Of a stretch of DNA of 20,000 bases, positions 1 through 20,000 are shown piece by piece. Location: positions 48,985 to 68,984 of the forward strand of contig RBNJ01000004.1 of assembly GCA_003990765.1 (NCBI GenBank), in the 5' to 3' direction. The stretch comes from Jimgerdemannia flammicorona (Eukaryota). Position 1 is the stretch's first letter, and each line of letters begins with the position of its first letter. Under the pieces are notes generated by a model that saw only the letters and a list, made by a program, of their open reading frames with translations, did no database searches and had not been told where the DNA came from. A program made the position numbers and the translations under genes.

Positions 1-575
1 CCTCTACAGTTGAAGTTGTTGAAGAATTCTTGCTCTGAATGTGTAATCTAAGCCAGATCACAATTGAGAATTTATCATGAGCTCAAGAACAACAGTCACA
101 GTATATTAACCAATACTACTGAGAAGAAATCTTTGACATTGGAGAAAAAGTTCTACTAGATATCTGAGAATACCGAGTTGACAACCTCAAGCACAAACCA
201 TCTATAAAGCTAAACAGCAAGTTCATTGGACCATTTGAAGTTATTGTATAAGTCTCCCCTACTTCCTACAAATTGGTGCTACCCAATATCATTAAGGTCC
301 ACCCAGTCTTTAATGTCCAATGTCTCAAGTGATACAATGACAATGACAATGAGCTATTCCTCAACTGGACCACCAAACCACCTGTACCTGTCATAATTAA
401 TGACCAAGAAGAGTATGAAGTTGAACAAATTCTCAACAAATGTGAAAGCAAAAACCACCCTGAGTACCTTATCAAATGGAAAGGTTACCCAATCCATGAT
501 GCCACATGGGAACTCAAGACCAACCTTCAGAATGCTACTGACTTAGTTCAGGAATATGATTCTTTGAACAACTGA
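1..575 (+). pseudogene. pol: pol 3' end: integrase GPY/F region plus chromodomain (premature stops)
   Basis: Frame 3 reads KLNSKFIGPFEVI...YKLVLPNIIKVHPVFNVQCLK* then EEYEVEQILNKCESKNHPEYLIKWKGYPIHDATWELKTNLQNATDLVQEY (from about 408), stop TGA 573-575. Confidence 0.93.
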
Positions 576-989
576 AATCCGAATACTCCGACACCTATCA
601 GTATATACTATATATTACCCCCCCAAACATTATAATTATCATAAACAAAATCAAGAACTCAGTAAAATAAGACAAGAACATTAATCTTCTAGAAAAATAG
701 CAAAACTGAAAGCCAGCCTATTCTCCCCATACCACTGGTGGGAAATGAGGCATAGATATTTAAGAAGATTCTTTAGAGGAAATTCCCCAGCAGTGAATGA
801 TGTCAGAATCACTTCTAGTGTATGGCATCAAACACATGACCCTTTAATATGTGAATCTGATGCATTAGGCAACTGTACTACAAGTGTGTCACTTTCTGAA
901 AAAATGGACTTCACCAGATTTTTGACCTTTTAATCAGTATAACAACACTAGAACAAAATTAGAAGACTCCAATGAGGACATCAAAAGCT

Positions 990-1002
990 AAGAAGGGGAG
1001 AG
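990..1002 (+). other. Polypurine tract of element A
   Basis: AAGAAGGGGAGAG, 1 nt before the TG that starts the LTR at 1004. Confidence 0.85.
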
Positions 1003-1020
1003 TTGTAAGTACACAACTCC

Positions 1021-1155
1021 TAAGCTACTGAAATCACACATAACCCTCTGAATAAGCCACCGAAATTACACACAACCTCTGAACAAATCTGGAAATCACC
1101 TGCTTAATCACGAAGCTGAGTCAAACTGAAGTCACAGTACACAAAGCTGAGTCAA
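1021..1155 (+). repeat. Short tandem duplications at the start of LTR A
   Basis: An approximately 32-bp unit taagcyacYgaaatYacacaYaacc(c)tctgaa occurs twice (about 1021-1084). AAGCTGAGTCAA occurs twice with a 31-bp period (TGAGTCA at 1117-1123 and 1148-1154). Confidence 0.75.
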
Positions 1156-1258
1156 CATGAAGTACCAATTAGGACCAAATACATATATACTGAGTATAAA
1201 GATGTGTCAAAACAGAGAACCAAAACAAACAATAACCACAACTTCCAAATACACAAAC

Positions 1259-2360
1259 ATGACCACTGAGATCTACAACCGCATCCGTACTGACATTTGG
1301 AATACTATTGTCAACCGAGCTACACTCTCTCTGCCCCTCATGAATATCCATAGCCTAGCACCCCTCTACTTCATGGAAGCCCAATGGAATGCCCTGAACA
1401 TGCTTAATGAGGCCCACCGGATTGGACAAATCTCAAGCTACTACTAGATCAGCCACCTCCTGGAAGACATGGTCAAACACCACTATGATACAGATATTAC
1501 CCAGATATCTCAACACCAGAAGCTCATCACCCGCAAACACAGAGAACTCTTTTATGAGTACAGCACCTTTATTCCTCACCTCTGAGTTACTATCAGTGAA
1601 ATGGTTGCTACCCTGTCTTATGGCCAAATTGATGACATGATATAAGAACTCAACTACAAGTACCTAGAATATGTCCAGACCACAGACAGAACCTTCCTGC
1701 ACCCTGATGACCATATCTTGCAAATGTCTCAAGTCAGATATACATATCATGAAGGATGTCTACGATATAATCTGATTTGATGAATATGAAGCAGAAGACA
1801 ATAATCCCTCTGATGCTGACATGATCTCAAGCTAAGGATCTCTACCAACTCTGATCATGCTGCCAATCTTGCTGATGAACTTACAACAATTCATAACTGT
1901 ATATGAGACTTATTGGGACAATGATCACTGATATGAATATCAACCCACATTCACTCTAAATTACTTCAACTATAATGAAGAGATCAGAGAACATAACCTG
2001 TACCTTCAGACAACCCTCAAGACTGAACCAACCACTCTACTACCTGAGCATGAGTGACATGAACCACAGCCACCAGCTTACTACAACCCTGTAACTCATA
2101 GTACTATAACCTATAAAAGGTATGTAGATAGTGAAACTGATGAAAGTGAAGACAATGTATCACTCCTTCACCCACTGATACCTTATCCAGTATACAAGAC
2201 AGATGATGCTATCCTGTGGGATGGTGATGAAGTTCCAATATATTACTACCTCAGCCAATAAGGAGAAGTAATCCATGAACTACTCTTCCTGGATAACTAC
2301 TTCATCAGAAATGATATCATTGATAATGATGTCATCGAAGACTACCCAGACAGCATCTAA
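1259..2360 (+). pseudogene. LTR-A-embedded ORF of unknown function, about 366 aa, decayed
   Basis: Runs from ATG 1259 to TAA 2358-2360 with one frameshift near 1718. All internal stops are explicable as transitions from CAG/CAA/CGA/TGG. The older copy has sense codons at three of them (TAA1833 vs CAA9245, TGA1929 vs TGG9341, TAA2259 vs CAG9670). Confidence 0.75.
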
Positions 2361-2547
2361 ACCTATAAATAGCTTAGCAGTCATAGAATAGTTAGATTAG
2401 TCTTGTATGATGTGACTGTGAACTGACTCAGCAGTCAGATGATCTTGACATATCAGATCACACTTGTACTATGTGACTGCATTCCGACTCAGCAAGGCAC
2501 TTAGTGCTATATCCATATCTAACATAGTCCAGATAGCCCCTCACTAA

Positions 2548-2555
2548 TATAAATA
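2548..2555 (+). promoter_or_regulatory. Candidate TATA box of LTR A
   Basis: TATAAATA, conserved in the solo LTR copy (about 18240-18247, minus). A second TATAAATA lies at 2365-2372. Confidence 0.5.
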
Positions 2556-2672
2556 TCCCCTCTCCCAGACCTCAGAATCTCAGACCTGAATAATCCGAAC
2601 ACAACTCCTGAGCACTTCTCCACAATATTCTTTCACACAACTACTCCTAGTATAGCAATATCATGAATAGCA

Positions 2673-2678
2673 AATAAA
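2673..2678 (+). terminator. Candidate polyadenylation signal of LTR A
   Basis: AATAAA about 120 bp downstream of the TATA, conserved in both minus-strand copies (tttatt near 18108 and 19904). Confidence 0.5.
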
Positions 2679-3036
2679 CCTATTTAATAACCCACAAACT
2701 ACTCTTAAGTAAATCTGCTCCCTGTTAGGTCTCACTCCTAACCCCATCACAAAATTTCCTAATTGGATATTGTCTGTAGCTATATGTCAATTCAACTAAG
2801 CTGGTCTTAGTTTCTTGAACTTTCTGAAATATGGAAAATCCTGAATATCTAGAACTAGTCTGGAAAAGGACTTTGGTTGAGATATCAACCCAATCTTAAA
2901 ATCAATAAGCATAGAGGATGTACTTCATACAAAATTGATCTTGATCATAAGAAAACAGTCTTCCAGAATATTCAGAACTTCCAGAAAAACCTTCCAGAAC
3001 TATGTAACAGTTATCCTAAAAAGCAACTCTCTTACA

Positions 3037-3073
3037 ATTACCCAGATATCTCAACATCAGAAACTCATTGCTT
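3037..3073 (+). repeat. Older family-A LTR (copy A0), left fragment; host of the nest
   Basis: attacccagatatctcaacatcagaaactcattgc matches 1496-1530 and continues after the LINE at 8962. Confidence 0.85.
3057..3073 (+). repeat. LINE target-site duplication, left copy (TCAGAAACTCATTGCTT)
   Basis: Identical to 8945-8961. 15 bp are unambiguous; 17 bp if the TT shared with the poly(T) is counted. Confidence 0.92.
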
Positions 3074-3156
3074 TTTTTTTTTTTTTTTTTTTTTATAGTC
3101 CCTTGGACTCCGTCTTTATTATCAATCTATGAATAAGTATACAATAACACCACCCT

Positions 3157-6100
3157 CTACCCTATCCCCATTGGGGGACCCCTCCCCACCTCTCTATGTA
3201 TAAAGACCACCCTCTCACTAATAACTCCAACTCTCCCACCACTCTGACCACAGATTTTCACCACTAAGCAGCGCCTCCGACCCCCCTGCAGCCCCCAACC
3301 AAGCCACCAGCCTGTCAAGGTATCCTCCATAAGGCACTGCCACTGTGATAACCGGCTCCCCAAGCTCTGTCACCTCCCCTCCTCAAATACAAATAGCCAG
3401 TGACTGGCCAGCCCAACTCAAATAGCCAACGCCCAGCCTAGAGTAATCCACTACTCCCCTACCCCTCCTATCAATCGATCCCTCAGATCCTCCCACCTCC
3501 CCCGTACATCATCACCCCTATGCCTTACCCCCAAGCGGTCCCCAATGGCCCACCAAAAGTCACCCAATACCTCACACTCCTCAAGCCAATGTTCTGGCAT
3601 CTGTACAAATTCTCCTTCCTGCCCTACATTATAGTATTCCTCGCAGTCAAAGCAGCCCCCTACAACAAGGTGACCTGAGCAGAAGTTAAGCATCACATTC
3701 CTCCTCAGCACCCACCACCAGACCACCCAGTACTTCGGCAGCATCCAATTTTTCACCGCAGCACTCCAGGTCCAAACCCCCTGCCAGTCCCACTCCTCAC
3801 CAATTCCAACTCCTTGCCAACTACTAGGCCACAGATCCTGGCCTGGTCCCCTTTGGCATTCGATTCCATCACCAATATTGAACTCCAGTAAAGGCATACC
3901 TCCCAGAAGAATGCCATCCCATCTCCACATTGCCAGGCCCCAAGCCCTCTCCCCCTCATCTCCTTGCCAGCAAATATCAATGCGGTGTGCCCCCTTGGCT
4001 ATCCCCAATGAGAAGCCTTTATATTACAGTTGCCCAGTATTCTGAAGCCCAACTAATGAAAGAAGATCACCAGTCAAGCCTCTTAGTGATGTCCGCCTCT
4101 CCCACACCTTCTGCAGCAGGGGAACCCAGCCCCCTCCATGCAACTCCACCGCCCTCCTAAGCCACCATGCCCTCAAGCAGTGTAGTCTTTTAGGGAAGTC
4201 CACCAGCTCAAGACCACCTCTCGCCACCAGTAGGGATAGTGTCTCCCAACCAATCTGACTCTGTCTGCCAGCCCAAATCCATCCCTTGGCCACCTTCACC
4301 AATCACTTTACCACCCAGGCTGGGAAGTCCAGATAATAAGCCAAATACCACAGTTTTGGCAGCCAGTATACATTCAAAATCGAGATCCTTCCTGCCAGAG
4401 AGAAGTGTCTTCCCCCCCAACTCCACAGGTCCTCCTCCCAAATTCCAATCCTCTGCTCCCACCACAGCCTGGGCAGAACAGACCCATAGATGGACAAAAA
4501 TATGCCCAAGTACTGCACTGCCTCTCCGGTGGGGACAATTGTTCCAATAACCTCTCTGCCCACCAGTCCATTGTCTAGCACTATCGTTTCACACTTGTGC
4601 CAATTCAGCTTCACCCCAGAGTTCTCCTCATACCACTCCACTGTCTTCTTGAGCTCCTCGACATCTGCAGTTACTCCCAAACTAACCACTATGTCATCTG
4701 CAAAGGCTCCAACTTTCCAGCCAATTCCATAGATAGAAAGCCCCACAATCTTCTGCCGAATTCGGTCCATTAGAGGCTCTAAGGAAAGTGTATACAAAAT
4801 GGAGGACAGTGGGTCCCCCTGGGGCACTTCTCTACCCAGAGGGAATGCTACCCCTCTATGCCCATTACACACGAGCGCAGCCCTACTCCTTTCCAGTAGG
4901 CTGACCATCACTGCCCGAAATGAGACTGGAACCCCAATCCTATCCAACACTTTTGCCAGCCAGACTTGCTGCACTCGGTCATAAGCCTTCTCCTGGTCTA
5001 AGAAGACAAGACACCCATCCAGTCCACAGGCTCGAGCACTCTCAATAACACCATGTACCCAGGCTGTGCCATCTCGAATAAGCTGACCCCCTATGAAGCC
5101 CCTCTGCTCAACACCCACAATTTGCTGGGCCATCTTCTGCAGCCTTGCGACCACCACCTTAGTCACTAACTTTCTGTCCATATCTAGCAACATTATTGGC
5201 TGCCAGTTTTTCCAATCCTCTTGCCTTCCCTTGTTCTTATAAAGCAGCATCATCAGCCCAAGATCCTGCTCCCCCACCCATCTCCCTGACTGCAATATGG
5301 AGTCACATAGTGCTGTCAACTCTCCCAATATGCCCGGGACTCCAACCATTCGCTTCCAGAAGTCCCAGGGGAGGCCATCCTCCCCAGGCGCCATACCTGA
5401 GGCTGTTGCGGCAAGAACCTGATGGATCTCGTCCTCTGTTACAGGCATCACCAGGTCACCTAATCCCTCAGCTCATGGAGGGCGCCAATCTTCTAATGTT
5501 TGTTCAATGGCTGTAGCATCTGCCCCACCCTCCTCCTCACTCCATAATCCACTCCATCATGTCTTCAGTATTCCAAGGATATCCTGTACACTATGCACTA
5601 GTCTACCCTCTGAGTCAAGTACCCCTTCCCACCACTGCTGTACCCTTCTCACTCAAAGTGTCCTCATAAGAAACTTGGAAGGCCTCTCCCCTTCCTTTAG
5701 CCCCTGCCAACGAAGCTGCGCCACCAGGCCTTGCACCCTTGACTCTTCCTCTTCCCACAGCACCTGTTGTAGTTCCCCAACCTCTATCTTCACTCTTGTT
5801 ATTCTCCAATCCTCTTCTCTCTCTACTACTGTCAGACTCGCCCACTCCTCCAGAAGTCTAGCCAATCTAGTAGAAGCCCAATGCACTCTCTGCCTTCGCT
5901 GCCTCCCAGCCACTCTGCCAGCCTTGCTCCAATACATCCTGGCCATCTCTTTCATCCTCCTCCACTGAACCCCAATTGTGGCCCCTTCCTGCCGCCAATT
6001 TACCATCTTCATCTGAATGTCATTTGCCCACTCCTTCCACCGGGACTCATCATCCAACAAAGAGGAATTCAGGTGCCAATGTCCAGGCTCATCACTACTT

Positions 6101-6813
6101 CCCCCAAAACACCCCTGTTCCAAAAGGCCCCAGTGGTCTGACCATGGACACCATTCTACCTCTAGCACCTTCCAAACGTCGCGGCCCCAACAGTTGGCTA
6201 TCAGAATCCAGTTAATCCTTGTCCCCAGGCCTCCAGCCCAATGTGTATATACCCTCCTGTCCCCCCAGTATTCCCTACCAGCATCCACCAGCACTCCTAG
6301 TCTTTCAACCTCCTCCCACATCACCAGCCCCCCACTCCTGCTCTCAGCACCCCGTCCTCCATCAGTTCTATCCAGCCATACATCCCAAACCATATTGAAA
6401 TTGCCTCCAAGTATATCCAACCCAGCTTCAGCAAGGATCCCACTCTCCAGGAGCCCTTTCACCCAATCCACATACTCCCCCCACACAGCAGAGCAGTAAC
6501 AGGAGCCAACTGTAACTGGCTCCCAACCTGCACGAATCCACTCACCCCAGACCAGTCTCTCCTCCCAGCTCCTCACATTCTGTATCTCCCCTCTGCCTTT
6601 CCGAATCAGAATCCCAACCTTGCTGTTCCAAATTGCCATGCCACCCCATTCCTTAGTCCATTCCATCCTATCAGAATCATCCTTGCACCTGACATCCTGC
6701 AAGAGGAAGAGATCGGCCTCCAATCCCTTCAACCAAATAAAAATGTTCCTACATCTAACTGTGCCCCTTAGCCCATTTACATTTAAAGAAAAAATGTTGG
6801 TTGTACTGTTCAT
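3157..6813 (-). pseudogene. LINE ORF2: AP endonuclease + reverse transcriptase + C-terminal Cys/His motif, with premature stops
   Basis: SLNVNGL, LLQDV, GGNFN, YTH, SDH (APE); APGEDG, LDQEKAYDRV, PQGDPLS, FADD at 4693-4704, YLG (RT); CFDC...EHWLEEC. ORF-track pieces 5653-6840, 4303-5451, 4024-4302, 3451-4008 and 3157-3363 are all in one frame. Confidence 0.93.
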
Positions 6814-6843
6814 AATAAAATATGGTTTGTTTGCAATCAATTC

Positions 6844-8859
6844 TTACTGCTCTATGCCCATCTCCTCCTGTGCCATGTCCAGATTGTATTCAGCCATCAC
6901 CTCCTCCTCTTCAGCCCTCTGAGCCTCCAGTCCAGCCAATAGCTCATTCATCTCCTCATCAGCCTTCTCCTCAAACTCCTCTCTGTACTTGATGCAAGCC
7001 TCCTGCCAAAGCTACAACCTATGACGCCTGTTCCAACAGTACTCAGCCTTCTCCCCAGCGACAACCGCCAACTCTGCCTCCCTCTCCTTGTCCACCTCAT
7101 ACCCTTCCTCCTTTAGATACACCGCAAGAATTTCCGCCTTCAGTGCCATCGCCACTCCTTCCCCCTGCAAAATTCTCGCCCAGTGCTCATCACCCATTCC
7201 ACACAAGTCCACCTCCCCCAGCTCTTCTGCCGCCAGGTTGTTTATCATCCAGCACATCCAAAGTAGGTTCCCCACCTCCTTCCCACCAGGGGTCGCTGGC
7301 CTCCCTCTGTCCAGCATTGTGGTGTCAGCTCCAGCACTCACATCCTCATCCCATACCTCTGGGACATCCTCCCTGGCCGCCACTACCTGGTCCCCATCCA
7401 ATACCTCCGGAATGCTGAATTTCACCTGCTGGGTCCCCAGCATCATCACATCCTCCCCAGATTTGTTCCTGGAAGCTGGGCCATGCCTGATAAGAGGAGA
7501 AGGGGTGGGGGAGTTCTCCCAGACTTCCTCCCAAACCTCCAAGGTGCCATCTGCATATGGGTTGCTAATCATCACCTCCTTTGCCTTCCCTGTCATTGCC
7601 CCATCATTCCCACTTCTCTCACCAGCCCAGACACTCGCTCTGGCCCCTTCTGCACCCATCTTCATGCTCGCATTCTTCTGTGGTCCATCCCCCAGTTTAG
7701 CCAGCAGATCCTTCTGCCTCTTCTGCCCCTGAGCCCTTTCCCACTGCACCTTGTCTACTTGAATTCTCTTCCCATCCACTATCTCCAGGTGTGCCGACTC
7801 CTCGAAAGTCTTCTAGGCCTTAGCACACCATTCCACAGCCCCATCCAGCTCCTCCAGTGCTTCCAATAAATCCTCCTCCTCTTCTTCACTTCCTTTCACC
7901 CATGTCACCTTGTACAGGAATGCACCCCAAACCATCGCCGAAGGCCAGTCTCTTGTCTTCTCAGTAGCCTCTTTTCTGACCAGCCGAATCCTCACATCCA
8001 TGTCCCCAGTCCTGAGTGTGGTCCCTTCCCAGACCCTGAATCTGATATCTACCACCTTGCCATACTCCGCCATGACATCCTCCACTCTCTTCCTCATCTC
8101 CATCGCCATCACCATGGGGACTCCTTTCACCAGCAGTTGGACCACCCTTGGATCTCATTTCAAACACCTCGCCATCAGAACACACATCTCTCCAACCACC
8201 AGCCCAACCCTCAGTGCCTCCTCCAGTGGTTCAACCTCCTCAAAACCCACCTCAACCCCCTCCAGTCCCTTCAGGAACTTCACCAAAGCCGCTCCAGCCA
8301 CCTGCTTAGTAATAAGCCCCAACACTATTTTCACTGTCACTGCTAAGCCCCGGAAACACAGCATGACTGCGAATGCCGAGATTGACTTCTTGAGTAACAG
8401 AGCCACCACCAGTCCCATTACACCATCTGCCAGGTCCCCAGGCCTTGTGCCCTTCCCACCATTCAGCTCACCATCAGCAGTCCCATCTAGATTTTTTTCC
8501 AGATTGCCCATCACACCCCCATCAGCAGTCCCCGCCCCAGCCGCTACCCCCTCAGCTCTACCCCTATGGCCCTCCAGAGAGGTACCCCCAAGAGGTTGCT
8601 GCCTGGCAGCCTTCATCGGTACCTTCTCCCCTCGCAGCCAGCTCTCCAGTCTAGCCCCTTGCTGACCCCCCTTCACCTTCTCTGCAAAGCTCACCCTGCC
8701 AGACCCTTGCCCTCCAGCTCTACCCCCTCCTCCACCATGGCCTCCCACCAGCAGGCCCCTCATACTTTCCCCCAAGCCAGGGCCCCTCCCCACTTGCTGC
8801 CATTCAAATGCTCCAGGGCCACCCTGCCCAGTATGCACCTCCGGATACTCATTGGTCAC
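6844..8859 (-). pseudogene. LINE ORF1, about 671 aa, RRM-like core, three premature stops
   Basis: Pieces 8155-8859, 7813-8145, 7012-7779 and the tail to TAA at 6844 share one frame. VQLLVKGVP...MAEYGKVVDIRFRVWEGTTLRTG resembles L1/Tx1 ORF1 RRM regions. Confidence 0.82.
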
Positions 8860-8944
8860 TATAATGTTAGTAGCTTTTCTCCAGAAACTGTGTTAAAAGT
8901 GTTGCCAAAGATTGTGTAACCTGAATGTTACCAGAGAAAGGTGT

Positions 8945-9775
8945 CAGAAACTCATTGCTTGTAAATACTGAGAACTCTTTTATAAGTATAGTATATCTCT
9001 GAGTTACTATTGCTGAAATATTTGCTACTCTGTTTTATGACCAAGTTGATGACATAGTATAAGAACTCAATCACAAGTATATTAAGTATATTTAAACTAT
9101 AGACAGAACCTTCTCACACCCTGATGACCACACCAATAAATGTCCCAAATTAGATATATTATAAAGGATATCTATAATATAATTTAGTTTGATAATAATG
9201 AAGCAAAAGATAATAATTTCTCTGATACTGACATGACCTCCAGCCAAGAATCCTTACTAACTCTGATCACTCTGCCAACCTTATTAATAAACTTACAATA
9301 GTTCATAACTATCTATAAGACCTATTGAGATAATGACCACTGGTATAAGTATTAATCTGCATTCACCCTAACTACTTCAACTATAATGAAAAGACTAGAG
9401 AATAAAACCTATATCTCCAGACAACTCTCAAGATTGAACTGACCACTCTACCTTCTGAATATGAATGAAACAAGCAATAGCTATCAGTATACTACAATCT
9501 TGCAACTTATAATGCTATAACCTATAGAATATATATAGACAGCAAATCTGATGAAAGTGAAGATAATACACCTCTCCTTTACTCACCAACTCCTTACCCA
9601 GTATATGAGACAGATGATGCTATCCTGTAGGATAGTGATGAGGTTTCAATATATTATTATCTGAGTAAACAGAGAGAAGTAATCTGAGAACTACTCTTTT
9701 GAGATAACTACTTCATCAGAGATAATATCATTAATAGTAATATTATCAAAGACTATCTAGACAGTATCTAAATTT
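8945..9775 (+). repeat. Older family-A LTR (copy A0), continued; begins with the right LINE TSD (8945-8961)
   Basis: Colinear with about 1516-2364 but much more AT-rich. Interrupted at 9776 by element B. Confidence 0.9.
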
Positions 9776-11220
9776 TATAATGGTGATCTCAGAATAATGA
9801 CATCATCACAGGAGATAGTCTTTCCTTATAATTCACTAGATCAGAATATAAAAAGATCATACAGCATAACTTACCCAGGCTACAAAATAAGTAATAATGA
9901 CAAACCATGAGTTATTGTGGTCACAAAACAGATATCTTGAGAAATATAAAAGAAGAATCAAGAAACTGCAATAGCAGTAACTCAAATAAGGCTTACAGAA
10001 ATAGTTCAAAAGACTTACTATAATCAAAATACCTACCCCTCACCAAACCTCAAGGTCTGGGAACCACTAAGACCCCTTAGTCTAGAAAAGTATGTTCTAA
10101 GATATCAGAAGAGCCATGAAGACCCAGTTCTAGCCTCAATCTGGATACTGGTGACTCTTATCACTATATTCTCTACTGCTATGAAAAATAAGAATCACTA
10201 TTACTATTGAATATCTCTAGATATGGTAGAAATATGAAATAGGAAACCTCCTCTGCTGGGAATTCTCTCAGATCAGTCTCCAAGAGATACAAGATACCAC
10301 TTCTATAGATACACATAAAATAAGAATAGCTAAGAAGATTTATTAGATCTTCAGACATATACTATAGTCAATTCCAATCTTAGAGTATACTAGAATCTCA
10401 GACTCCAAGGAATTGTAAGTCCACTATATCAATATACTGGAGGCTATAGTGGCTACAGAAGCCCAGTCTACTATTACTCTTAATAGTGATGAAGTAGAAG
10501 AGTTCTGGAATCCTATCCTCCAGGACAATCCAGACCAATTTCTACAAGGATTGATCTCAGAATTCCAAGGCTCCAGCATTTAAGTTAGATCTCCCTAAGA
10601 CCCCATATTTGTTTCTTATTTTGTAGAAGAAAATTTTATAGATTAGAGAGCCCCCACTGCTACTAAACAAGATGATGTCATCTATAATAACATTATTGAT
10701 AATAATATCATCTTACTAATTGGTAACATATGCAAAATATGTGAAATAGATAAAATGTTTGCCAACCTCATTTCCTTTGAAGACATCCTATCCCCAACCT
10801 CTAGCTTTGATAATAGTAATAAGAATGAAGCCTCTATGGTTCTGAACATTCTGCTTTAAGTTCTTGATAATACTAAAATCTTCTGGTATCTTTTTCTATA
10901 ACACTAAAATTTACTAGCAATCTGAACTTGTATAACTATTTGTATAGATACTTGAATTTGTACTTACAACTGAAGTTTTCTATATTCCAGTATTTTATTT
11001 AGTTATTAGAATTTATATTTAGGTTTATATCTTAGTAATTATTGAATTATATTTTGTATAAATATCTCTCTTATTTCCTTTGAAATAAAGTCAGTCAAGT
11101 TCACTTATACTTAATTCTATACAAGTAATCTAAAAAATAATAAGACAGTTTTAAAATAAGAAGTTTGAGGACTATAAGACCTTGAGAAGATACTCCAATA
11201 AGAACTTGCTTATAACAAAC
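9776..11220 (+). repeat. 5' LTR of family B (right end approximate, about 11100-11360)
   Basis: 9776-10828 aligns with 16971-17750 + 19258-19545. Starts TATAATGG (decayed TGTAATGG). AATAAA at 11084-11089. The end cannot be fixed because the matching part of the 3' LTR is outside the window. Confidence 0.75.
10092..10583 (+). pseudogene. LTR-B-embedded ORF (5' LTR copy; 11-nt and 4-nt deletions relative to the 3' copy)
   Basis: ATG 10092 ...YEIGNLLCWEFSQISLQEIQDTTSIDTHKIRIAKKIY*IF...EVEEFWNPILQDNPDQFLQGLISEFQGSSI* (TAA 10581-10583). Confidence 0.65.
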
Positions 11221-11403
11221 TTGTGATTAATCTAAGAGATATACCTTGGAGAGAATCTGATATATTTGAATCACTATGTGATAACTTGATACCCATTGGC
11301 TGGTGATTTAAGATGAATCTCTTACTTTTAAGCTGAAAAATGAATTATCACCATAATAACTACCCTGACTACAAGAGTCACCCCTGTAAGAATTCAAGAT
11401 AAG

Positions 11404-12700
11404 ATGGAAATGCATCTCCCCACATTCTATAGATATACTATTGAAGAGTCAATCCTGATCTTCATTGAAAACTTTGAACAATTTGCCACCATATGAGCCC
11501 TCAATATTAATGTACAATTGGCCCTTCTACTAGTTAGCCTCAGAGGACCTACCAGAGACAAGTTCAATATAGTCACTATTGCTGATACTAGTACAGCCAA
11601 ACTTGCCAACATAAAGACCTTTCTCAGAACTATATACTATACTGAAGATATCAAGCAAGCTCTCAAGAATCAACTCAAAACTATTTGTCAAGAACTTAGT
11701 AAAGACTCCAACTCATTCTATACCTAAATCTGCTACCAGATTGTCTTAGCTAGCTATGATGATACTCTTAAGGAATAAATAGCTAATTTAACCTTCTTTA
11801 AAGAAATTCACCCTAAAATTGCCCTCACAATCTGGTCTACCCCAGCTACTCTGACTCTTGACCAGAAAGTGGTCTTTGTATAGAGATATTGAACTATCAG
11901 ACACCCTGCTGAATACTCAATAGAGAAAATAACTGGTATCAAGATAGAGCTACAAAAACTAACCAGTATCATATCTACCATAGTCATAAACAGATAACTA
12001 TTCCCACCTACCCCCAAGGTAGCCAAAGCTAACTCAGTGAAGGAACTCACCAAGTAGTTTACCAAGATAACTATATACCTTAGTGATGTTGTTAGAGAAG
12101 TCCAAAGTGCCAACAGGAGACCAGTACAGAGATTTACAGTTGTTATAGAAGAATGCAATATTATATACTTCAAATATAAAGAAGAAGATTACTATACAAA
12201 GAGTTGTATAACTAAAATAAGATGCAAAGTCCAATCAAGCAATACTACCAGAACTAGAAAATAAATTAATATGGTAGTTATCAAGGAGATTGGTGACACT
12301 GATGATGAAGAATACTATGAAGAGTCTAAATTCTACCCTATTACTAAAGATACTAGAACCCAGTCCAAGCTCTATGATAAGAAGGGCAATAGTAAGCCAG
12401 TTAGAAGACCAAAGAAGACACCAGCTGTCACTATTTAAAGTAAGACCCAACTCAAGGAAATTGATCAAAACATAGAGTTAGATAAAGCTACCCATCAAAT
12501 CATTAAAAGTACTACTCTAGTCTTAGGAGAAAGCAAGAGCAAGAAAGAATAGAAGCTGTATATGATAAAGATTCACTAGTATAATATCTACAAGAATCTC
12601 AAAGAACAGAAGGTCAATGCTACTTTTGGATAACTAGCTGAAGTCTCTACCTTCAGATAATAGTTAAGAGTAGAACTTACAACCACTATTAAGAACTAAG
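11404..12700 (+). pseudogene. gag: gag of element B (capsid-like region plus decayed CCHC zinc knuckle); boundaries approximate
   Basis: LPTFY...FIENFEQFA...LLVSLRGPTRDKF. 12166-12207 reads YFKYKEEDYYTKSC, a C-X2-C-X4-H-X4-C spacing with TGY>TAY and CAC>TAC transitions. Confidence 0.75.
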
Positions 12701-12759
12701 AGTACAAGATCATAGAAGCTCACAATGCACAAGAAGAAACCTGAGAATTTAGGTGAAGA

Positions 12760-13140
12760 ATCTAAAGACCAGCACAAGATATCAGCCTATATCTCATATC
12801 AGATTGAAGATTATATCTTTGATACTATCATTGATACTAATGCTGGAGAATACCTCATGAGCAAGAAGACAATTGACTACCTAAGCTGGAACATTGAAGA
12901 GTCCACCAAAATGGTCTATATTACAGAAGATAGTATATAAGCTACCCTTCTAGACAAGATCCAAGAAGTCTCCATCAAGATAGAAAGAGCTACCATTCTA
13001 GTAGATGTAATTGTTATAAGTACCACTAACTATAATATCCTCATTAGCAACTATTGGCTTCATAAGACTAAGGCTGTTATTGACCTCAATGCTTAGAAGA
13101 TACAGATCAACTATAGAGAAAGAAAGATATGAGTCTCTAT
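12760..13140 (+). pseudogene. Aspartic protease domain of element B
   Basis: IIDTNAGEYLM (DTN at 12833-12841, from DTG by GGT>AAT), later YNILISNYWL...AVIDL (decayed ILG-DWL motif). Confidence 0.8.
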
Positions 13141-13470
13141 CAAGACATAGAGAAAGGAGATAAAGAGGACACAGAAGTCTTTATACACTCAATATATAAG
13201 AACAAAAACAAGATACCCAAGCTCACAGATGAGTAGTAGTATAATAAGATCATCAATAACTATACTCCTTAAGGTCAATACTCTCATGGTATCAGGATTT
13301 ACTACTTTGAATACCTGAATAACTGCTGGTTCTATATTAGTGAAGTCAGAAAACTCTATTAACAAAAGCATAAGTAAGAAGCTACTGAAGCAAAAAGGAA
13401 AGCCAAAGAAGATGATCAGCCCCCAGAGCTTTAAGCTAATAGTGATGATGAGGAGGAATAAGAACCAGAC

Positions 13471-13886
13471 ATCACTCTCAAGGTTAAGAAGTTTTATTCT
13501 GAAGCCAAGATCCCAGAATACAAGACTAAAGGAGTTATAAGAATAGATCTTACCAGTATTCAAGATACTATTCTTGAACTACAAACCATCACCTACTTGG
13601 CACTAGAATTGGAGTCAAGTTACCAGAAAACCATACCAGAATTATCAAAATCAAGAGCAGTCTGGCCAAAAGTAAAATCTCAGTTGAAGGAGGAGTAATT
13701 GACCCTAATTACACTGGTAAAATCTTCCTCATAGTCAGGAATTACAACTTCACCACTCTATTCAAAGTCAAGAAGTATAACAGAATTGACCAGATGCTGA
13801 TCCATGAAGTCAAGAAGCCTAAGATCACTAAAGCCATCAAACTCATCAAGACCAAGAGAGGAGAACAAGACTTTGAATCTACTAGA
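13471..13886 (+). pseudogene. dut: dUTPase domain of element B (one frameshift near 13595)
   Basis: All five motifs are recognisable: EAKIPEYKTKGVIRIDL; KSSLA; GGVIDPNYTGKI (13689-13724); RIDQM; RGEQDFESTR (13857-13886). Confidence 0.92.
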
Positions 13887-14069
13887 AGAGGAGCCTATAC
13901 TGCTACTAAGATTACTGAACTCAAGCACAAGAAAGACAAGGACCAGAATAAATACATATATACCATTGGAGAAAACTTTCCCCTAGAAAAACAACTTCTT
14001 AAGATTCTGTATCAGAATAAAGAAGTACTTGTTACAGACTTCAGGAATATCCACAATTAAGAATCCAAG

Positions 14070-15377
14070 TACTATCATGAAGTTGATACTAATGATACTA
14101 AGTCCATCTACCAGAAAGCCAGACCTATACCACCTGCCTACAGAGAATGACTGCAAGCAGAACTCAAGGAAATAGAAAAAGTTAGTATTGTTAAACAAGC
14201 TATTAGCCCCTGGGCTTTATTCATTATCCTCACTTCAAAGAAAGAAAGTAGTCTGGAGAGTTTGCTTCAAGACTCTGTATTGATTATAGGAAGCTTAATA
14301 TAATTACCAAGAAGAATAGGCAGCTCTTGCCAAATATTTAAGAAATTCTTACCACTCTTGGAAGTGAAGCCAAATACTATACCATCTTGGATCTGTTCTC
14401 AGGCTTCTATCAGATTGGTCTCACTCAAGAGGCCATTGAGAAATTAGCCTTCATCATATCTAATACTACCTATGTCTACCTGTGAATGTCATTTAGAATG
14501 TACAATATCCCAGTAAGTTTTTAGTAAATAATGAACAGAGTTTTTAGTAATGAGATTGGAAAATAGCTCTTTATCTATATTGATGATATGATCATCTTCA
14601 GTAATATTATATGAGAATATATCAACTATATATAGCTAACTCTCAAGATGCTCAAGGAGTATGACCTCTATATTAAGCCCAAGAAGGGTAAGTTTATAGC
14701 TCAGGAAATCACCTACCTAGGACATATTATAAACCAGACCAGAATTTATATAGACTCTATGAAGATTGAGACTGTTGCAGCCTATCTAAGATTCAGAACA
14801 ACTACAGAAGTCCATATCTTCCTTGGACTGACCTCCTACTATAGAAGATTCATTAAAGAATACTCTAACATTACAGTATCTATCTACAAGCTACTGAAGA
14901 AGGAGACCAAATTTGAATAGACCAAGGAATATTAAGAAACCTTCAATAAACTCAAGACTAGATTGATCTAAGCATCTATCCTCAGAAGACCAGATTGAAA
15001 CCTAGAGTTCATCTAGCAGATAGATGAAAATACTATAGGACTTGGAGTAGTCTTAGCTCAGAAGAAAGATAGACATAAATATATCATCTCCTATATAAGC
15101 CAAGATACTCATAGAGTAGAACAGAACTATGAGTTATATAAGCTTGAATACTTAGCAGTATTTTGGACAGTAGACAAGTTCCACTACTATCTAGCTGGGA
15201 AATACTTCACTATTTAAACAGACCATTCTGCTCTTGCCTGGCTATTCCACACTCTAAACCTCAAAGAAATATATACTAGATAGATCTACAGACTGTAAGA
15301 GTATAACTATACTGTTAAGTACTATGTACTTAGGAAGAACTAATACCAATACTGATGTACTCTCAAGGATACTCTAA
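14070..15377 (+). pseudogene. pol: Reverse transcriptase and RNase H of element B
   Basis: SPWA, RLCIDYRKLN, LDLFSGFYQI, YIDD (14576-14587), YLGH, FLGLTSYYRRFI, GLGVVLAQ, TDHSALAWL, DVLSR. Confidence 0.93.
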
Positions 15378-15402
15378 AATATCCCCATTAAGACCATTTA
15401 AT

Positions 15403-16602
15403 ATGAATAAGGAGCTATACTATAGATTAATTAGCTATCTTAGGCAGTAGAAGATATTCAACCATCTTAAACTCTAGACTATTACCATCATCAACCAGAC
15501 TTGGAAACAATTTGAACTAGACAACACTATGCTCAGAAAAGGAGAAAAGATTATAATATCTAAATACAAGATATATCAAATAATGAAGGAAGTATATGAA
15601 CAAAGATATCTAAAAGAAACTAATATATATGATAAAGTAAGAAGAACTATATAGTGGCCTAAGATGGAAGAAGATCTGTACCAATTTGTCAAAGGGTGTG
15701 ATAAGTACCAAAAACAGAAATAAGATCAGTAAGACCAGATATCTGAGTCATTAAGAATTGAGCCTATCCCCTTTTACCACATTGTAATAGATATCATTAG
15801 ACTACTACTAGTAATACTATCAGGAAACTGCTATATTATAGTTATTATAAACTTCTTTACCAAATGAATAGAAGTAGGAGTATTATAAGAAGCTAATGCT
15901 CTCTCTATAGCTAACTTCCTATACTGAGAAATCATCTGCCACTACAAGACACCAAGGTAAATCACCACAGACCATGGTATAGAATTTGTTAATAGATTCT
16001 ATAAGATAATATATGTATTATAAATATAAGATTCAGTATATCAAGACTACTGTGTATCATTTTCAAGGAAATGGACAGATAGAAAGAACCAACAAGACCC
16101 TCAAGAACATCCTGGTCAAGATCTCAGAAATATATAAGAATTGGGATAACTATCTCCCAATCACTCTCTCTGTTCTATAAGATATATGATCACAAGTACA
16201 CACTTTACCTCAAGAGAACTGCTCTTCAGAGAAAAAAATTCTGATGGAATTTCAGCCACAAATCTAGACCTAACTTGGAGATAGATTGATTCAGAAATCT
16301 GGAGACTATACTAAATTAGAAAGAAGGCTGAAGATTATATTATCAAGTTATAAGTACTAATAAGGAAAAATACAGAAAAGAATTACAAGATCCTAGAACC
16401 CATCCAAATTAGAAAAAAGGTCCTACTATATTGAAATATAGTAGAAGCCTTATAGTTGTGAAAACTGGAGCCCAAATAAGAAGAATTCTTCTATATGCAA
16501 GATATCAAGGGAACTATCTTCTGGCTTAGAAAACTCTCAGAGACTATACTTCCTACTATAATATATAGAAACAGACTTAAGAAGTACCATAAACCTATAT
16601 AG
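15403..16602 (+). pseudogene. Integrase of element B (decayed HHCC, DDE core, GPY/F region; no chromodomain)
   Basis: WPKMEEDLYQFVKGCDKYQ; PFYHIVIDII; ITTDHGIEFVN; YHFQGNGQIERTNKTLKNIL; KLEPK*EEFF; IYRNRLKKY; stop at 16600-16602. Confidence 0.9.
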
Positions 16603-16960
16603 GAAAAGTAAAACATGATGACTGCCCATGAGGTTTTAGTTTACAAATCATAATAGCATATTCCATGACCAGTAGACAATCTGTCTGAACTATTATCTAA
16701 GGGATATGGCATCAGTAACTACTCATCTATAAGACTTTCAAAGCCAGAGAAGTTTGAACTATCAACTGATTAGTCAAGATTAGAATTAAGCCCTTACTCT
16801 ATATGAAGAGAGCAAAACTTCACTATTATGCCAAAATATATAAGAAAGATATCAGTCTATAAATATTACTTTTTGATTTCCTGCCAGAGGTTATGGGATC
16901 AGCAAATTTTTCAAACTAGACCAATGAATAAGTATATTCAAGAGAATATTCTTATTCAGT

Positions 16961-16970
16961 AGGAGAAAGA
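16961..16970 (+). other. Polypurine tract of element B
   Basis: AGGAGAAAGA directly before the 3' LTR start at 16971. Confidence 0.75.
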
Positions 16971-17750
16971 TATAATGGTGACCTCAGAATGATGATATTA
17001 TCACAGAAGATAGCCTTTCCTTACAAGCTACTAGATCAGAGTATGAGAAGATCATATGGCATAACTCACTCAGGCTATAAAATGAGCAATAATGACCAAC
17101 TATGAGTCATCATGGCTATAAGACAGATATCTCAAGGAATATAAAAGAAGGATTAAGAAACTGCAGTAGTAGTAACTCAAACAAAGCTTACAGAAATAGT
17201 TCAAAAGACTTACCACAATCAAAATACCTGCTGCTCACCAAACCTCAAGGTCCAGGAACCATCAAGGTCCCTCAGCCTAGAAAAGAATATTCCAAGACAT
17301 CAGAAGAGTCATAAGGACCTACATAAGAAGGACTCCTAGCCTCAATCTGAGTACTAGTGACCCTTATCACTATATCCTCTACTGCTATGAAATGGAAATA
17401 AGGATCACTATTGCTACTGAATATCTCTAGATATAACAGGAATATAAAATAAGAAATCTTCTCTACTGGGAATTCTCTCAGACCAGTCTCCAAGAGATAT
17501 AAGATATTATTTCTATAGATATACATGAAATAAGGATAGCCAAGAAGATTTATCAGATCTTCAGACATGTACTATAGTTAATCCCAAACTTAGAGTATAC
17601 TAGAATCTCAGACTTCAAGAAATTATCAGCTCACTGTATCAATATACTAGAGGCCATAGTGATCATAGAAGCCCAGTCCACTATTACCCTCAATAGTAAC
17701 AAAGTAGAAAAGTTCTAGAATCCTATTCTCCAGAACAATCTAGACCAATT

Positions 17751-19252
17751 TATAAGAGAGTTACTTATTAGAGTAACTATTATATAGTTCTAGAAGGGTT
17801 TTCTGGAAGTTCTAGATTTTCTAGAAGACTGTTTTCTTAAGATCAAAATCAATTTTATATAGAGTATATTCTCTATACTTATTAATTTTGAGATCAGATT
17901 GATGTCTCAGCCAAAGTTCTTTTTTTGGACTAGTTCTGGATGTTCAGAATTTTCATATTTCAGGAAGTTCAAGAAACTATGACTAGCTTAGTTGAATTGG
18001 CATATCACTGCAGACAATACCCAATTAGAAAATTTCATAACAGAGTTAGGAGTGAGACCTAATAGGGGACAGATTTACTTAAGAGTAGTTTGTGGGTTAT
18101 TTAATAGGTTTATTTACTATTTATGATATTACTATACTAGGAGTAGTTGTATGAAGAGATATTGTGGAGAAGTATTCAAGATTGTTTTTGTGTATTTAAG
18201 TTTATTTAAGTCTGAGATTCTGAGGTCTGAGAGAGAAAGTATTTATACTAGTGAGGGGCTATCTGGACTATGTTAAATATGGATGTAGCACTTAGTACCT
18301 TGCTGAGTTGGAATACAGTCATATAGTACAAGTGTGATCTAATATATCAAGAGGTCATCTGACTGCTGAATTAGTTTACAGTTATATCATATAAGACTAA
18401 TCTAACTATACTATAACTACTAAGCTATTTATAGATTTAGATACTATCTGGTTAGTCTTTGATAATATTATTATTGATGATATCATCTCTAATAAAGTCT
18501 GAGTAGTTTTCTGACTTCTAATATCATTAGTTTCAAAGGTATCATTACCTCTGTTTCTTGTAAAATTAAGGCTATTCTTAGTGGTAGTGGTTGTACAAGG
18601 ATAACAGGTCTTGGTTCTCTTTTTTTTGAGACTGCTGGTATATTTATAAGGACTGACCATCCTTGTCTAGGGCAAGGGCTCTCAATGTCATGACTGAGGG
18701 TTTGAACCTCTTGAAAATGATATTTTCTATAATCTGAGGCAATTTCTAGTAGTAATATCTGTCATATGGATGGGCTTGAGATTGATTTTGATAATATTGG
18801 CTTTTTTGAGTTCAGATGAAGTATCTGTCATTCTCCAATAGAGGTGATATAAATAGAGTAAATAGAGTTGTTCAAATGTGTTTTGCCTCTGCTAAGTAAT
18901 GAGGTCTTTATATAGTTACAGTATATCTTAGTCTTAAGTTAATAAGTATAGTTTATGAATCTTTAGTAGATAAGAGAGATTCTTTTTATCTTAGTTTGAG
19001 TTTGGTACTTCAGTTTCCTTTTGTAATAGTATGGTATACCAAAACTAGTTATAGAGATATAGGATCAGTCTTATAGTTATAGTACTTCTTCTAGTATTCT
19101 TATATCTTAGCAGTAGATTCTCATGCTTGCTGATATATTTTATATAATCAGGTAATCTCTTCAGTAACTTGTTTTGTAGTCTTGCATATGGTTTTTAAAT
19201 TAGTTCTGAGGATAATATGCGATTTTAATAGCTTGGAGGTTGTACACTTACA
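17751..19252 (-). mobile_element. Solo LTR of family A (variant A2), 1502 bp, 5-bp TSD
   Basis: Minus strand TGTAAG (19252)...CTTATA (17751; decayed CTTACA). TSD CAATT 17746-17750 / TAATT 19253-19257; the empty site is visible in the 5' LTR at about 10536-10545. 17751-18497 matches about 2301-3036. Confidence 0.9.
18905..19177 (-). pseudogene. Ty3/Gypsy integrase C-terminal fragment inside solo LTR A2
   Basis: EEIT*LYKIYQQA*ESTAKI*EY*KKYY...VLVYHTITKGN*STKLKLR*KES then LIY*RFINYTY*LKT, parallel to the element B integrase tail at 16291-16600. Confidence 0.65.
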
Positions 19253-19545
19253 TAATTCCTGTAAGAATTGATCTCAGTATTTCAAGGCCCCAGTATCTAG
19301 GTTAGACCTCCCCAAGACTCTACATTTATTTCTTATTTTATAAAAGAGAATATCATAGATTGGAGAGTCTCCACTACTGTCAAATAAGATGATATCACCC
19401 ATAATGATATTATTGGTAATAATGTCATCCCACTAATTGGCAATATATATGAAATATATAAAATAGATGAAATATTTATCAACCTCATTTCCTTCAAAGA
19501 CATTCTGTCTCTGACCTCTGGCCTTGATAATAGTGACAAAGATGA

Positions 19546-20000
19546 TGTAAGAGGGTTGCTTTTTAGGGTAATCATTACATAGTTCTGGAAGGGTTTTCTG
19601 GAAGTTCTGGATGCTCTGGAAGACTGTTTTCTTATGGTCAAGATCAATTTCATATAGAGTACATCCTCTATGCTTATTGATTTCAAGATTGGGTTGATGT
19701 CTCAACCAAAGTCCTTTTTTGGACTAGTTCTGGATGTTCAGGATTTTCCATGTTTCAGGAAGTTCAAGAAACTAAGACCAGCTTAGTTGATTCGGTGTAT
19801 CGCTGCAGACAATACCCAATTCGGAAATTTCGTGATGGGGTTAGGAGTGGGACCTAATGGGGAGTAGATTTACTTAAGGGTGGTTTGTGGGTTATTAAAT
19901 AGGTTTATTCGCTATTCATGATATTGCTATACTAGGAGTAGTTGTATGAAGGGATATTGTGGGGAAGTGTTCAGGAATGTTCTTGTGTGTTCAAGTCTGA
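19546..20000 (-). repeat. Family-A LTR (copy A3), 3' end, truncated by the window edge; least mutated copy
   Basis: The reverse complement ends ...AAGCAACCCTCTTACA at 19546, matches about 2578-3036, and retains CpGs lost from the other copies. Confidence 0.92.

Follow-up and report, generated by a model that had tools for sequence, protein, structure and literature searches.

Introduction

Accessory genes are rare in long terminal repeat (LTR) retrotransposons, where they usually lie between gag-pol and an LTR, and genes located in or overlapping the U3 region of the LTR are known from retroviruses (sag, tas and nef). The sag gene of the mouse mammary tumor virus (MMTV), a vertebrate retrovirus, is an open reading frame (ORF) in U3 encoding a superantigen, a type II membrane glycoprotein, while the tas/bel1 transactivator gene of foamy viruses is situated at the 3' end, overlaps U3 and has its own internal promoter. 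Here we describe two ORFs, termed ORF-A and ORF-B, located within the LTRs of two Ty3/Gypsy families (the chromovirus A and the dUTPase-bearing element B) in a 20,000-nucleotide stretch of the Jimgerdemannia flammicorona genome (assembly GCA_003990765.1, contig RBNJ01000004.1, positions 48,985–68,984 of the forward strand; hereafter, the window). In our estimate, the probability that each LTR of these two families holds a complete sense-strand accessory gene is about 0.6.

The likeness to MMTV sag consists in a complete sense ORF inside the LTR, and thus in both LTRs and in solo LTRs; on the other hand, the hosts of ORF-A and ORF-B are Ty3/Gypsy retrotransposons, and the encoded proteins have acidic tails and no Pfam match. 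The working model outlined below would resemble tas/bel1 in featuring a 3'-end accessory regulator with a dedicated promoter, in which a binding part is followed by an acidic activation part. However, tas merely overlaps U3, whereas ORF-A and ORF-B together with their presumed promoter lie wholly inside the LTR, and there is no sequence similarity. Pfam-A and PDB searches (E≤1 in either case) returned no match that would point to Sag, Tas/Bel or Nef.

Among retrotransposons, the rice Ty3/Gypsy elements Retrosat2, RIRE3 and RIRE8, with LTRs of >3 kb, contain an ORF0 that evolves faster than pol and, according to the accessible part of that report, has no relatives outside the element group (PMC3485330). 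It is comparable in that Ty3/Gypsy elements whose LTRs are unusually long carry an extra ORF of unassigned function, but it lies upstream of gag-pol rather than in the LTR, belongs to related families of plants, and is not reported in the accessible text to be shared between distant lineages (PMC3485330). In bdelloid rotifers, the portion of the study available to us describes ORF3 types common to unrelated LTR-retrotransposon lineages, some of which carry a dUTPase (PMC5408684). One accessory ORF type in different lineages of one genome, pointing to modular exchange, is the feature in common with our case; unlike the ORF-A/ORF-B protein, which is an orphan, the ORF3 products described in that portion can be recognised as enzymes or as env-like proteins (GDSL lipase, DEDDy exonuclease, fusion glycoprotein), and the wordings "within/inside/into the LTR" and "overlap" are absent from it (PMC5408684). 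Fungal Gypsy elements with an "add. ORF" are also on record, as is PosPlaTy3-5 with a dUTPase between PR and RT, the arrangement of element B (PMC2864245); in the available text this ORF is named in a figure legend, with neither position nor sequence, and is likened here by description only (PMC2864245). Our full-text literature search, with figures, supplements and subscription journals outside its scope, found no description of a Ty3/Gypsy ORF wholly inside an LTR. Accessory ORFs of LTR retrotransposons are already known; what sets the present case apart is a gene inside the LTR of a Ty3/Gypsy element, which is unusual for such elements.

A gene that lies, with a presumed promoter of its own, wholly inside the LTR would come in two copies per element, would be kept as an intact unit in solo LTRs, and could turn hundreds of loci into sources of a trans-acting factor. 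If a chromovirus and a dUTPase lineage share a domain of this kind, the gene is either useful to retroelements generally in this host or moves as a module. Repeat masking and LTR annotation conceal such genes, and the database relatives found in this study are all unnamed metagenome fragments.

Results and Discussion

Intact relatives of ORF-A and ORF-B

An earlier note on this DNA, made from the letters alone, had aligned short translated segments of the two LTRs (1442–1462 and 1526–1633 in LTR-A; 10233–10253, 10326–10433 and 17536–17643 in LTR-B) and proposed a small helical accessory protein encoded inside both. Its five quoted translations proved exact on re-reading; each segment has stop codons, and therefore neither is an ORF as it stands. 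The window frames were read through with X at the stops and searched against 5.8 billion proteins.

ORF-A (1259–2360, plus strand) is a decayed frame of ∼367 codons, interrupted by 8 in-frame stops and, near 1750, by one frameshift. It is contained within LTR-A (1004–3036) and includes both segments noted earlier for this LTR. Its two known intact relatives, both available as proteins, restore the frame: P0004 (128 aa), 85% identical to 1259–1642, has Q and R in place of the window TAG and TGA, and P0010 (247 aa) spans 1601–2357 in one frame, bridging the frameshift near 1750 and having Q at the window TAA at 1643. Scans of viral contigs with A3 and P0004 yielded no relative.

ORF-B, in its decayed 5'-LTR copy (10029–10859, plus strand), comprises 276 codons and a stop, with 14 in-frame stops within 10062–10856; a hidden Markov model (HMM) of the B family matches 10035–10856 with E 1.9e-81. 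It lies within LTR-B (9776 to ∼11358) and again in the 3' LTR, and is thus found at both ends of element B, past the polypurine tract and ahead of gag. The segments 10233–10253 and 10326–10433 both fall inside it. The start codon has changed from ATG to ATA in both window copies. Five intact relatives of 161–271 aa show 55–61% identity (E 4e-29 to 4e-77), and wherever the window stops fall in aligned columns, all of them stand opposite sense residues in these five proteins. An HMMER search with the B profile (1.84 billion representatives) returned only six proteins at E≤1e-3, none of them A-type. Three of the six (P0012, P0013 and P0014) are more diverged members, 29–47% identical to P0005, and still have open frames. 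Another of the six, P0015, a 338-aa repeat protein (..LQMWRRYTLACILCYIFPDVTEIHARLLDHRP..) with a weak match (E 6e-4) via one short motif, was discarded as a false lead. All database relatives are soil-metagenome proteins, unnamed or labelled "hypothetical protein", from short contigs. A scan of metagenome contigs added one locus (L001) with an intact B member of 291 aa, the ATG of which aligns with the ORF-B start codon.

These relatives substantiate the proposal of a protein gene inside the LTRs of both families, with codon periodicity as further support in the case of ORF-B. The protein is, however, not small (∼367 aa in A and 276 aa in B), and the 36-aa stretch taken for the domain is only a fragment of a domain of ∼120 aa.

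The codon-position test was made for ORF-B. Between L001 and the 5' copy, 127, 91 and 156 differences fall at codon positions 1, 2 and 3, respectively (249 aligned codons); the pattern is unchanged when both sequences are shifted by one base, and is therefore not produced by the protein-guided alignment. By comparison, the differences that have built up since insertion between the 5' and 3' LTRs of this one B element are spread evenly over the three positions (34, 31 and 40). ORF-B therefore evolved as a protein: it diverged under protein-level constraint between subfamilies and decays neutrally in the dead window copy. Intact relatives with open frames extend down to 29% identity.

The decay of the window copies has a clear signature. 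In the old elements (9776–17750 and 1–3036), 325 of 358 differences between paired copies (91%) are transitions, and CpG is wholly lost, its observed/expected ratio being 0.00 in element B. Among C→T changes the most frequent context is CpA (101 of 190), and among G→A changes it is TpG (80 of 139). The pattern is like that of repeat-induced point mutation, or methylation-driven. Such C→T/G→A decay after insertion accounts for the stops, derived from Q, R and W codons, that the earlier reader had seen, and the ORF-A and ORF-B copies in the window are dead.

Probable relationship between the N-terminal domains

In line with the earlier note, blastn (word size 9, E<1e-5) detects no DNA similarity between the two LTRs. 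The gapless match of 1526–1633 with 17536–17643 was reproduced at 10 of 36 identities (BLOSUM62 raw score 18); when 1526–1633 is paired with the 5' copy, 10326–10433, the identities drop to 9 of 36 and the score to 0. Profile alignment with the intact relatives recovered the same register and both blocks originally pointed out (YQIGRLL/YEIGNLL and IARKHRELF..IP.L/IAKKIHQIF..IPNL).

The profile comparison against shuffled controls that had been proposed in the earlier note was performed with the intact P0004. Aligning it with the B profile by hhalign gave P 0.0028 with six B sequences and 3.8e-4 with eight, after the diverged members were added; B residues 25–144 pair with A residues 9–126 over 117 columns (of 128 residues) at 20% identity. 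The score of 31.3 was reached by none of 297 residue shuffles of P0004 (null 12.9±2.4, maximum 22.2), the reversed sequence scoring 15.1. Real proteins served as further controls, and their 23 windows (128 aa each) all stayed below this score. Nineteen of these controls, which are unrelated, scored ≤15.4, and the other four (24.4–25.5) all come from P0015, which was itself picked by the B profile. Smith-Waterman comparisons of P0004 gave p 0.001 with P0006, 0.0025 with P0012, 0.003 with P0017 and 0.007 with P0013, all in one register that is common to three B subfamilies.

AlphaFold2 modelling, likewise suggested at the outset, resulted in low-confidence models (the mean predicted local distance difference test score, pLDDT, was 46.7 for the B alignment, while P0004 had 52.2), in which the predicted helices do fall at matching places under the alignment. 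Both proteins combine a near-neutral N-terminal half with a strongly acidic C-terminal half. Overall, judging from the alignments, the N-terminal domains of the A and B proteins (∼120 residues) are probably homologous. Of the shared helical domain originally proposed, the N-terminal, predicted-helical part thus stands as probable in view of the hhalign and shuffle results, while the C-terminal halves are not detectably related.

Database searches placed neither protein in a described family. Pfam-A at E≤1 has no family for P0004, P0005, P0006, P0007 and P0010, and for P0008 it gives only ATG5_HBR (E 0.088, below the cut-off); Pfam on the 83 window ORFs revealed nothing beyond the expected retroelement domains. 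A PDB sequence search with A3, P0004 and P0010 had zero matches at E≤1, and the ESM Atlas offered low-scoring neighbours only, its model of P0005 having a pLDDT of 0.35. Two leads, the Closterovirus coat protein (PF01785) and Translat_reg (PF01818), appeared solely as language-model neighbours (0.80–0.93, 104–144 shared features); they were rejected, the shared features being below the 170 typical of true members and the Pfam scans having found neither.

Cassette layout and proposed mode of action

The surroundings of the two ORFs follow one scheme. In LTR-A, a TATAAAG box (1195–1201, plus strand), presumably acting as a promoter, precedes the ORF-A start codon by 58 bp; a second TATA box, TATAAATA (2548–2555, plus strand), follows 187 bp past the stop and is kept in the other two A-type LTR copies (one at 18240–18247, minus strand), and AATAAA, the presumed polyadenylation signal, is at 2673–2678 (plus strand), with equivalents at 18109–18114 and 19904–19909 in the minus-strand A-type LTRs. 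In LTR-B, a TATAAAAG box (9945–9952, plus strand; also 17140–17147 in the 3' LTR) is located 77 bp ahead of the ORF-B start, and a second TATA box, TATAAATA (11057–11064, plus strand), 197 bp past the stop, is followed by AATAAA (11084–11089, plus strand). L001 also has TATAAAAG, 73 bp ahead of its ATG, showing conservation of the box between B and a diverged relative. The order common to both families is as follows: LTR start, ∼170–190 bp, TATA box, 58–77 bp, ATG, a near-neutral predicted-helical half, an acidic half, stop, ∼190–200 bp, second TATA box, AATAAA and LTR end. In the whole window TATAAATA occurs 9 times as against 1.98 expected, a count reached in none of 200 shuffles, and several occurrences are at equivalent places in three A-type LTRs.

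According to the proposed reading, the gene would sit in U3, with the second TATA box and AATAAA downstream of both ORFs. The upstream TATA box would start the transcript of the gene and the LTR's own poly(A) signal would end it, making every LTR, solo ones included, a self-contained transcription unit, while the downstream TATA box would drive the gag-pol genomic RNA. The module would either have been inherited from a common ancestor and be fast-evolving, or have been exchanged between co-resident families.

As to function, we can offer a weak and rather doubtful guess that the product could be a regulator working in the nucleus, in which a helical half would bind or dimerise and an acidic tail would resemble an activation domain. 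Its targets, reached in trans as in the case of foamy-virus Tas/Bel1, would be the LTR promoters of the elements themselves or else the silencing imposed by the host. In its most far-reaching form, the LTR itself would be a gene in at least two unrelated Ty3/Gypsy families, that is, a promoter-ORF-terminator unit encoding a trans-acting regulator, with the module passed between families and mutual activation or blunted silencing exerted from dispersed copies, thousands of solo LTRs included. This extended version we consider rather unlikely.

Alternative explanations

The reading of an LTR-borne gene shared by both families has to be balanced against a number of observations that speak against it, in whole or in part, and that partly coincide with the case for its rivals. 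Those concerning common ancestry would also fit if both LTR ORFs were real but independent in origin, the N-terminal likeness reflecting chance or the composition of helical, fast-evolving orphans. On window DNA alone the similarity is not significant: the best gapless extension of the match scores 38 over 30 residues, out-of-frame pairs of the same two LTRs reach 28–40, and in a test with 200 dinucleotide shuffles of LTR-B per copy, taking all sense-frame pairs of the two LTRs, 35% (5' copy) and 42.5% (3' copy) of the shuffles attained ≥38. The window's own decayed A copy gave P 0.075 against the B profile in hhalign. HMMER alone leaves the families unconnected (independent E-value 0.1 for the B profile on 1238–1639 and 0.76 for P0004 on 17335–17604), and the hhalign probability of the alignment with P0004, in which the A side is a single sequence, is only 36%. 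Four of the eight Smith-Waterman tests of P0004 gave p>0.04 (0.041 with P0005, 0.051 with P0008, 0.12 with P0007 and 0.67 with P0014), and these tests are not independent, since the B-family test sequences are mutually related. Between the C-terminal halves, neither hhalign (P 0.48) nor Smith-Waterman (p 0.09–0.37) detects a significant likeness, and residue shuffles break helix periodicity and hence overstate significance. Nevertheless, independent origin does not readily account for a profile score that none of the shuffles or real control windows reached and that went up on adding diverged B members, for the alignment of 117 of 128 residues with one register in three B subfamilies, or for the same cassette layout (TATA, ATG, helical half, acidic half, second TATA) in both families; we regard it as unlikely.

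Other observations concern the location and expression of the gene. Short motifs served to place the promoters, the limits of U3, R and U5, and the poly(A) site; one of them, AATAAA, is unenriched in the window (24 found, 21 expected). In an alternative arrangement, the upstream TATA would be the sole LTR promoter and the ORF would lie in R/U5 as the first cistron of the genomic RNA, like ORF0/ORF1 of some plant Ty3/Gypsy elements. In favour of such a leader ORF, A, B and L001 all have a canonical TATA box 58–77 bp ahead of the ATG, and the ∼170–190 bp between LTR start and TATA are a typical U3 length; yet a second TATAAATA and AATAAA follow the stop in both families and are conserved in three A-type LTRs, the part upstream of the second TATAAATA is the variable one among A-type LTRs, as U3 should be, and an ORF of 0.8–1.1 kb before gag would probably impede gag-pol translation. 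We consider the leader arrangement improbable. Location inside the LTR may not be universal either: in L001 (1249–1275), immediately behind the ORF stop codon, there is a purine run, GGAGGGAGGA, and then TGTAAT, resembling a polypurine tract and LTR start, and the ORF of this subfamily may sit just upstream of the LTR. The same locus has a 33-nt direct repeat, 82% identical, at 170–202 and 1481–1513, 1311 nt apart. A solo A-type LTR that has lost nearly the whole ORF (17751–19254, see below) indicates that at least some copies can do without the gene, and the earlier suggestion that the protein persists in solo LTRs holds for the cassette in the solo or fragmentary LTR-A0 but fails for this copy. 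Among the sequencing runs listed for the stretch are four soil-metagenome DNA runs with small shares of it and no RNA run. The functional guess made above draws on charge distribution and low-confidence helices. That the frames are not genes at all, being spurious database calls on repeat DNA open through base composition, would fit with the A- and C-rich, T-poor plus strand, which lowers stop frequency, with relatives restricted to nameless or "hypothetical" proteins of short metagenome contigs, and with the lack of Pfam or PDB relatives at the cut-offs given above. This is highly improbable given that frames stay open at 29–47% identity, that L001 is open for 308 codons (chance from base composition 3.6e-7), that differences are tied to the frame (position 2 < position 1 < position 3), and that the B alignment varies in conservation along its length, a near-invariant block standing beside variable tails.

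Organization of the window

The repeats were mapped by blastn self-comparison (word size 9, E<1e-5), Pfam analysis of the 83 ORFs and reading of the junctions. The window is a nest of retroelements inserted into one another. Bases 1–575 are the end of the pol gene of chromovirus A, with the integrase C-terminus, chromodomain and stop at 333–575 (plus strand; Pfam Chromo E 1.2e-16 on 333–572). The polypurine tract of element A, AAAAGCTAAGAAGGGGAGAG (983–1002, plus strand), ends one base ahead of the TGTAAG of the 3' LTR, which occupies 1004–3036 (plus strand; 2033 bp) and is delimited by the terminal inverted repeat TGTAAG...CTTACA. The LTR-A start is exactly the place where the solo LTR running from 19254 to 17751 begins to align (TGTAAG), and the final 740 bp recur at 17750–18498 and 19546–19976, both on the minus strand (blastn). 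An interpretation of 2299–3037 as a separate LTR family was ruled out, since a single 2-kb LTR is defined by its termini (TGTAAG...CTTACA), by the polypurine tract and by the solo LTR, which is flanked by a target-site duplication (TSD). Both LTR-A and LTR-B are much longer than the window repeats suggest.

Element A was inserted into an older LTR of its own family, LTR-A0, whose first piece (3037–3071, plus strand) is equivalent to 1496–1530 (blastn 1496–1527 to 3037–3068, 94%) and whose second piece (8959–9775, plus strand) is equivalent to 1531–2361 (77% identity to 1517–2361). Its ORF-A copy is decayed and frameshifted, phmmer with P0010 matching 9024–9158, 9089–9370 and 9364–9768 in three frames. 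The two pieces are split by a long interspersed nuclear element (LINE; 3072–8943, minus strand; Pfam RVT_1 2e-27 and Exo_endo_phos 9e-6) with a 23-nt poly(A) tail and a perfect 15-bp TSD, TCAGAAACTCATTGC, at 3057–3071 and 8944–8958. The LINE is young and has long open frames, a GC content of ∼52% (31–40% in the old elements around it) and a CpG observed/expected ratio of 0.23.

Element B interrupts LTR-A0 at the ORF-A stop codon. Its 5' LTR (9776–11358, plus strand; ∼1583 bp) was mapped by the blastn matches of 9776–10544 with 16971–17754 and of 10537–10828 with 19254–19545; the right end, at ∼11358, is inferred from TCACCATAATA, a 10/11 inverted match to the start, TATAATGGTGA. The Pfam domains come in the order RVP_2 (12941–13093), dUTPase (13578–14057, E 2.8e-12), RVT_1 (14636–14917) and RNase H (15017–15214), the dUTPase lying between protease and reverse transcriptase as in dUTPase-bearing Ty3/Gypsy elements. 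The two hosts are thus a chromovirus and a dUTPase element, as the earlier note had it; for the chromodomain said to be lacking in B, Pfam finds none among ORFs ≥50 aa, in a region so heavily decayed that its absence is not proven. The polypurine tract, AGGAGAAAGA (16961–16970, plus strand), directly adjoins the start of the 3' LTR. The left piece of that LTR (16971–17750, plus strand) contains the ORF-B copy 17224–17750, including the segment 17536–17643 quoted earlier (B-profile HMM 17227–17763, E 5.9e-65), and ORF-B continues in the right piece (19255–19545, plus strand, equivalent to 10537–10828; B-profile HMM 19253–19546, E 4.3e-23).

The two pieces are separated by the solo A-type LTR (17751–19254, minus strand; 1504 bp), which was identified from its junction and start alignments and has a 5-bp TSD (CAATT/TAATT). 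The right flank of B, at one time taken for an inverted A fragment, was resolved as this solo LTR in the 3' LTR, which resumes at 19255 until, at 19546, a further A-type LTR on the minus strand interrupts it and extends beyond the window. The solo LTR retains just the last ∼20 codons of ORF-A (P0010 residues 228–247 match 18440–18505 in phmmer, independent E-value 0.026). Its first ∼60 nt and last ∼750 nt are common with LTR-A, and most of ORF-A is replaced by ∼750 nt of unrelated sequence with semi-open frames of its own, the ORF-A remnant reading ..DDIINNNIIKD.PDSI.

The four soil-metagenome DNA runs (X1–X4, from two studies) contain thousands of short contigs 80–99% like the window elements (9762 in X1), which indicates that these soils commonly harbour the host or organisms closely related to it. 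The differences of these contigs from the window are mostly T>C and A>G (40 of ∼4,800 differing places listed).

All insertions of LTR elements in the window hit other LTRs (3036/3037, 9775/9776, 17750/17751 and 19545/19546): A went into A0, B into A0 exactly past the ORF-A stop, and the 3' LTR of B took up two A-type LTRs. Such a pattern points to repeats or heterochromatin as insertion targets, which would be expected for elements that carry a chromodomain.

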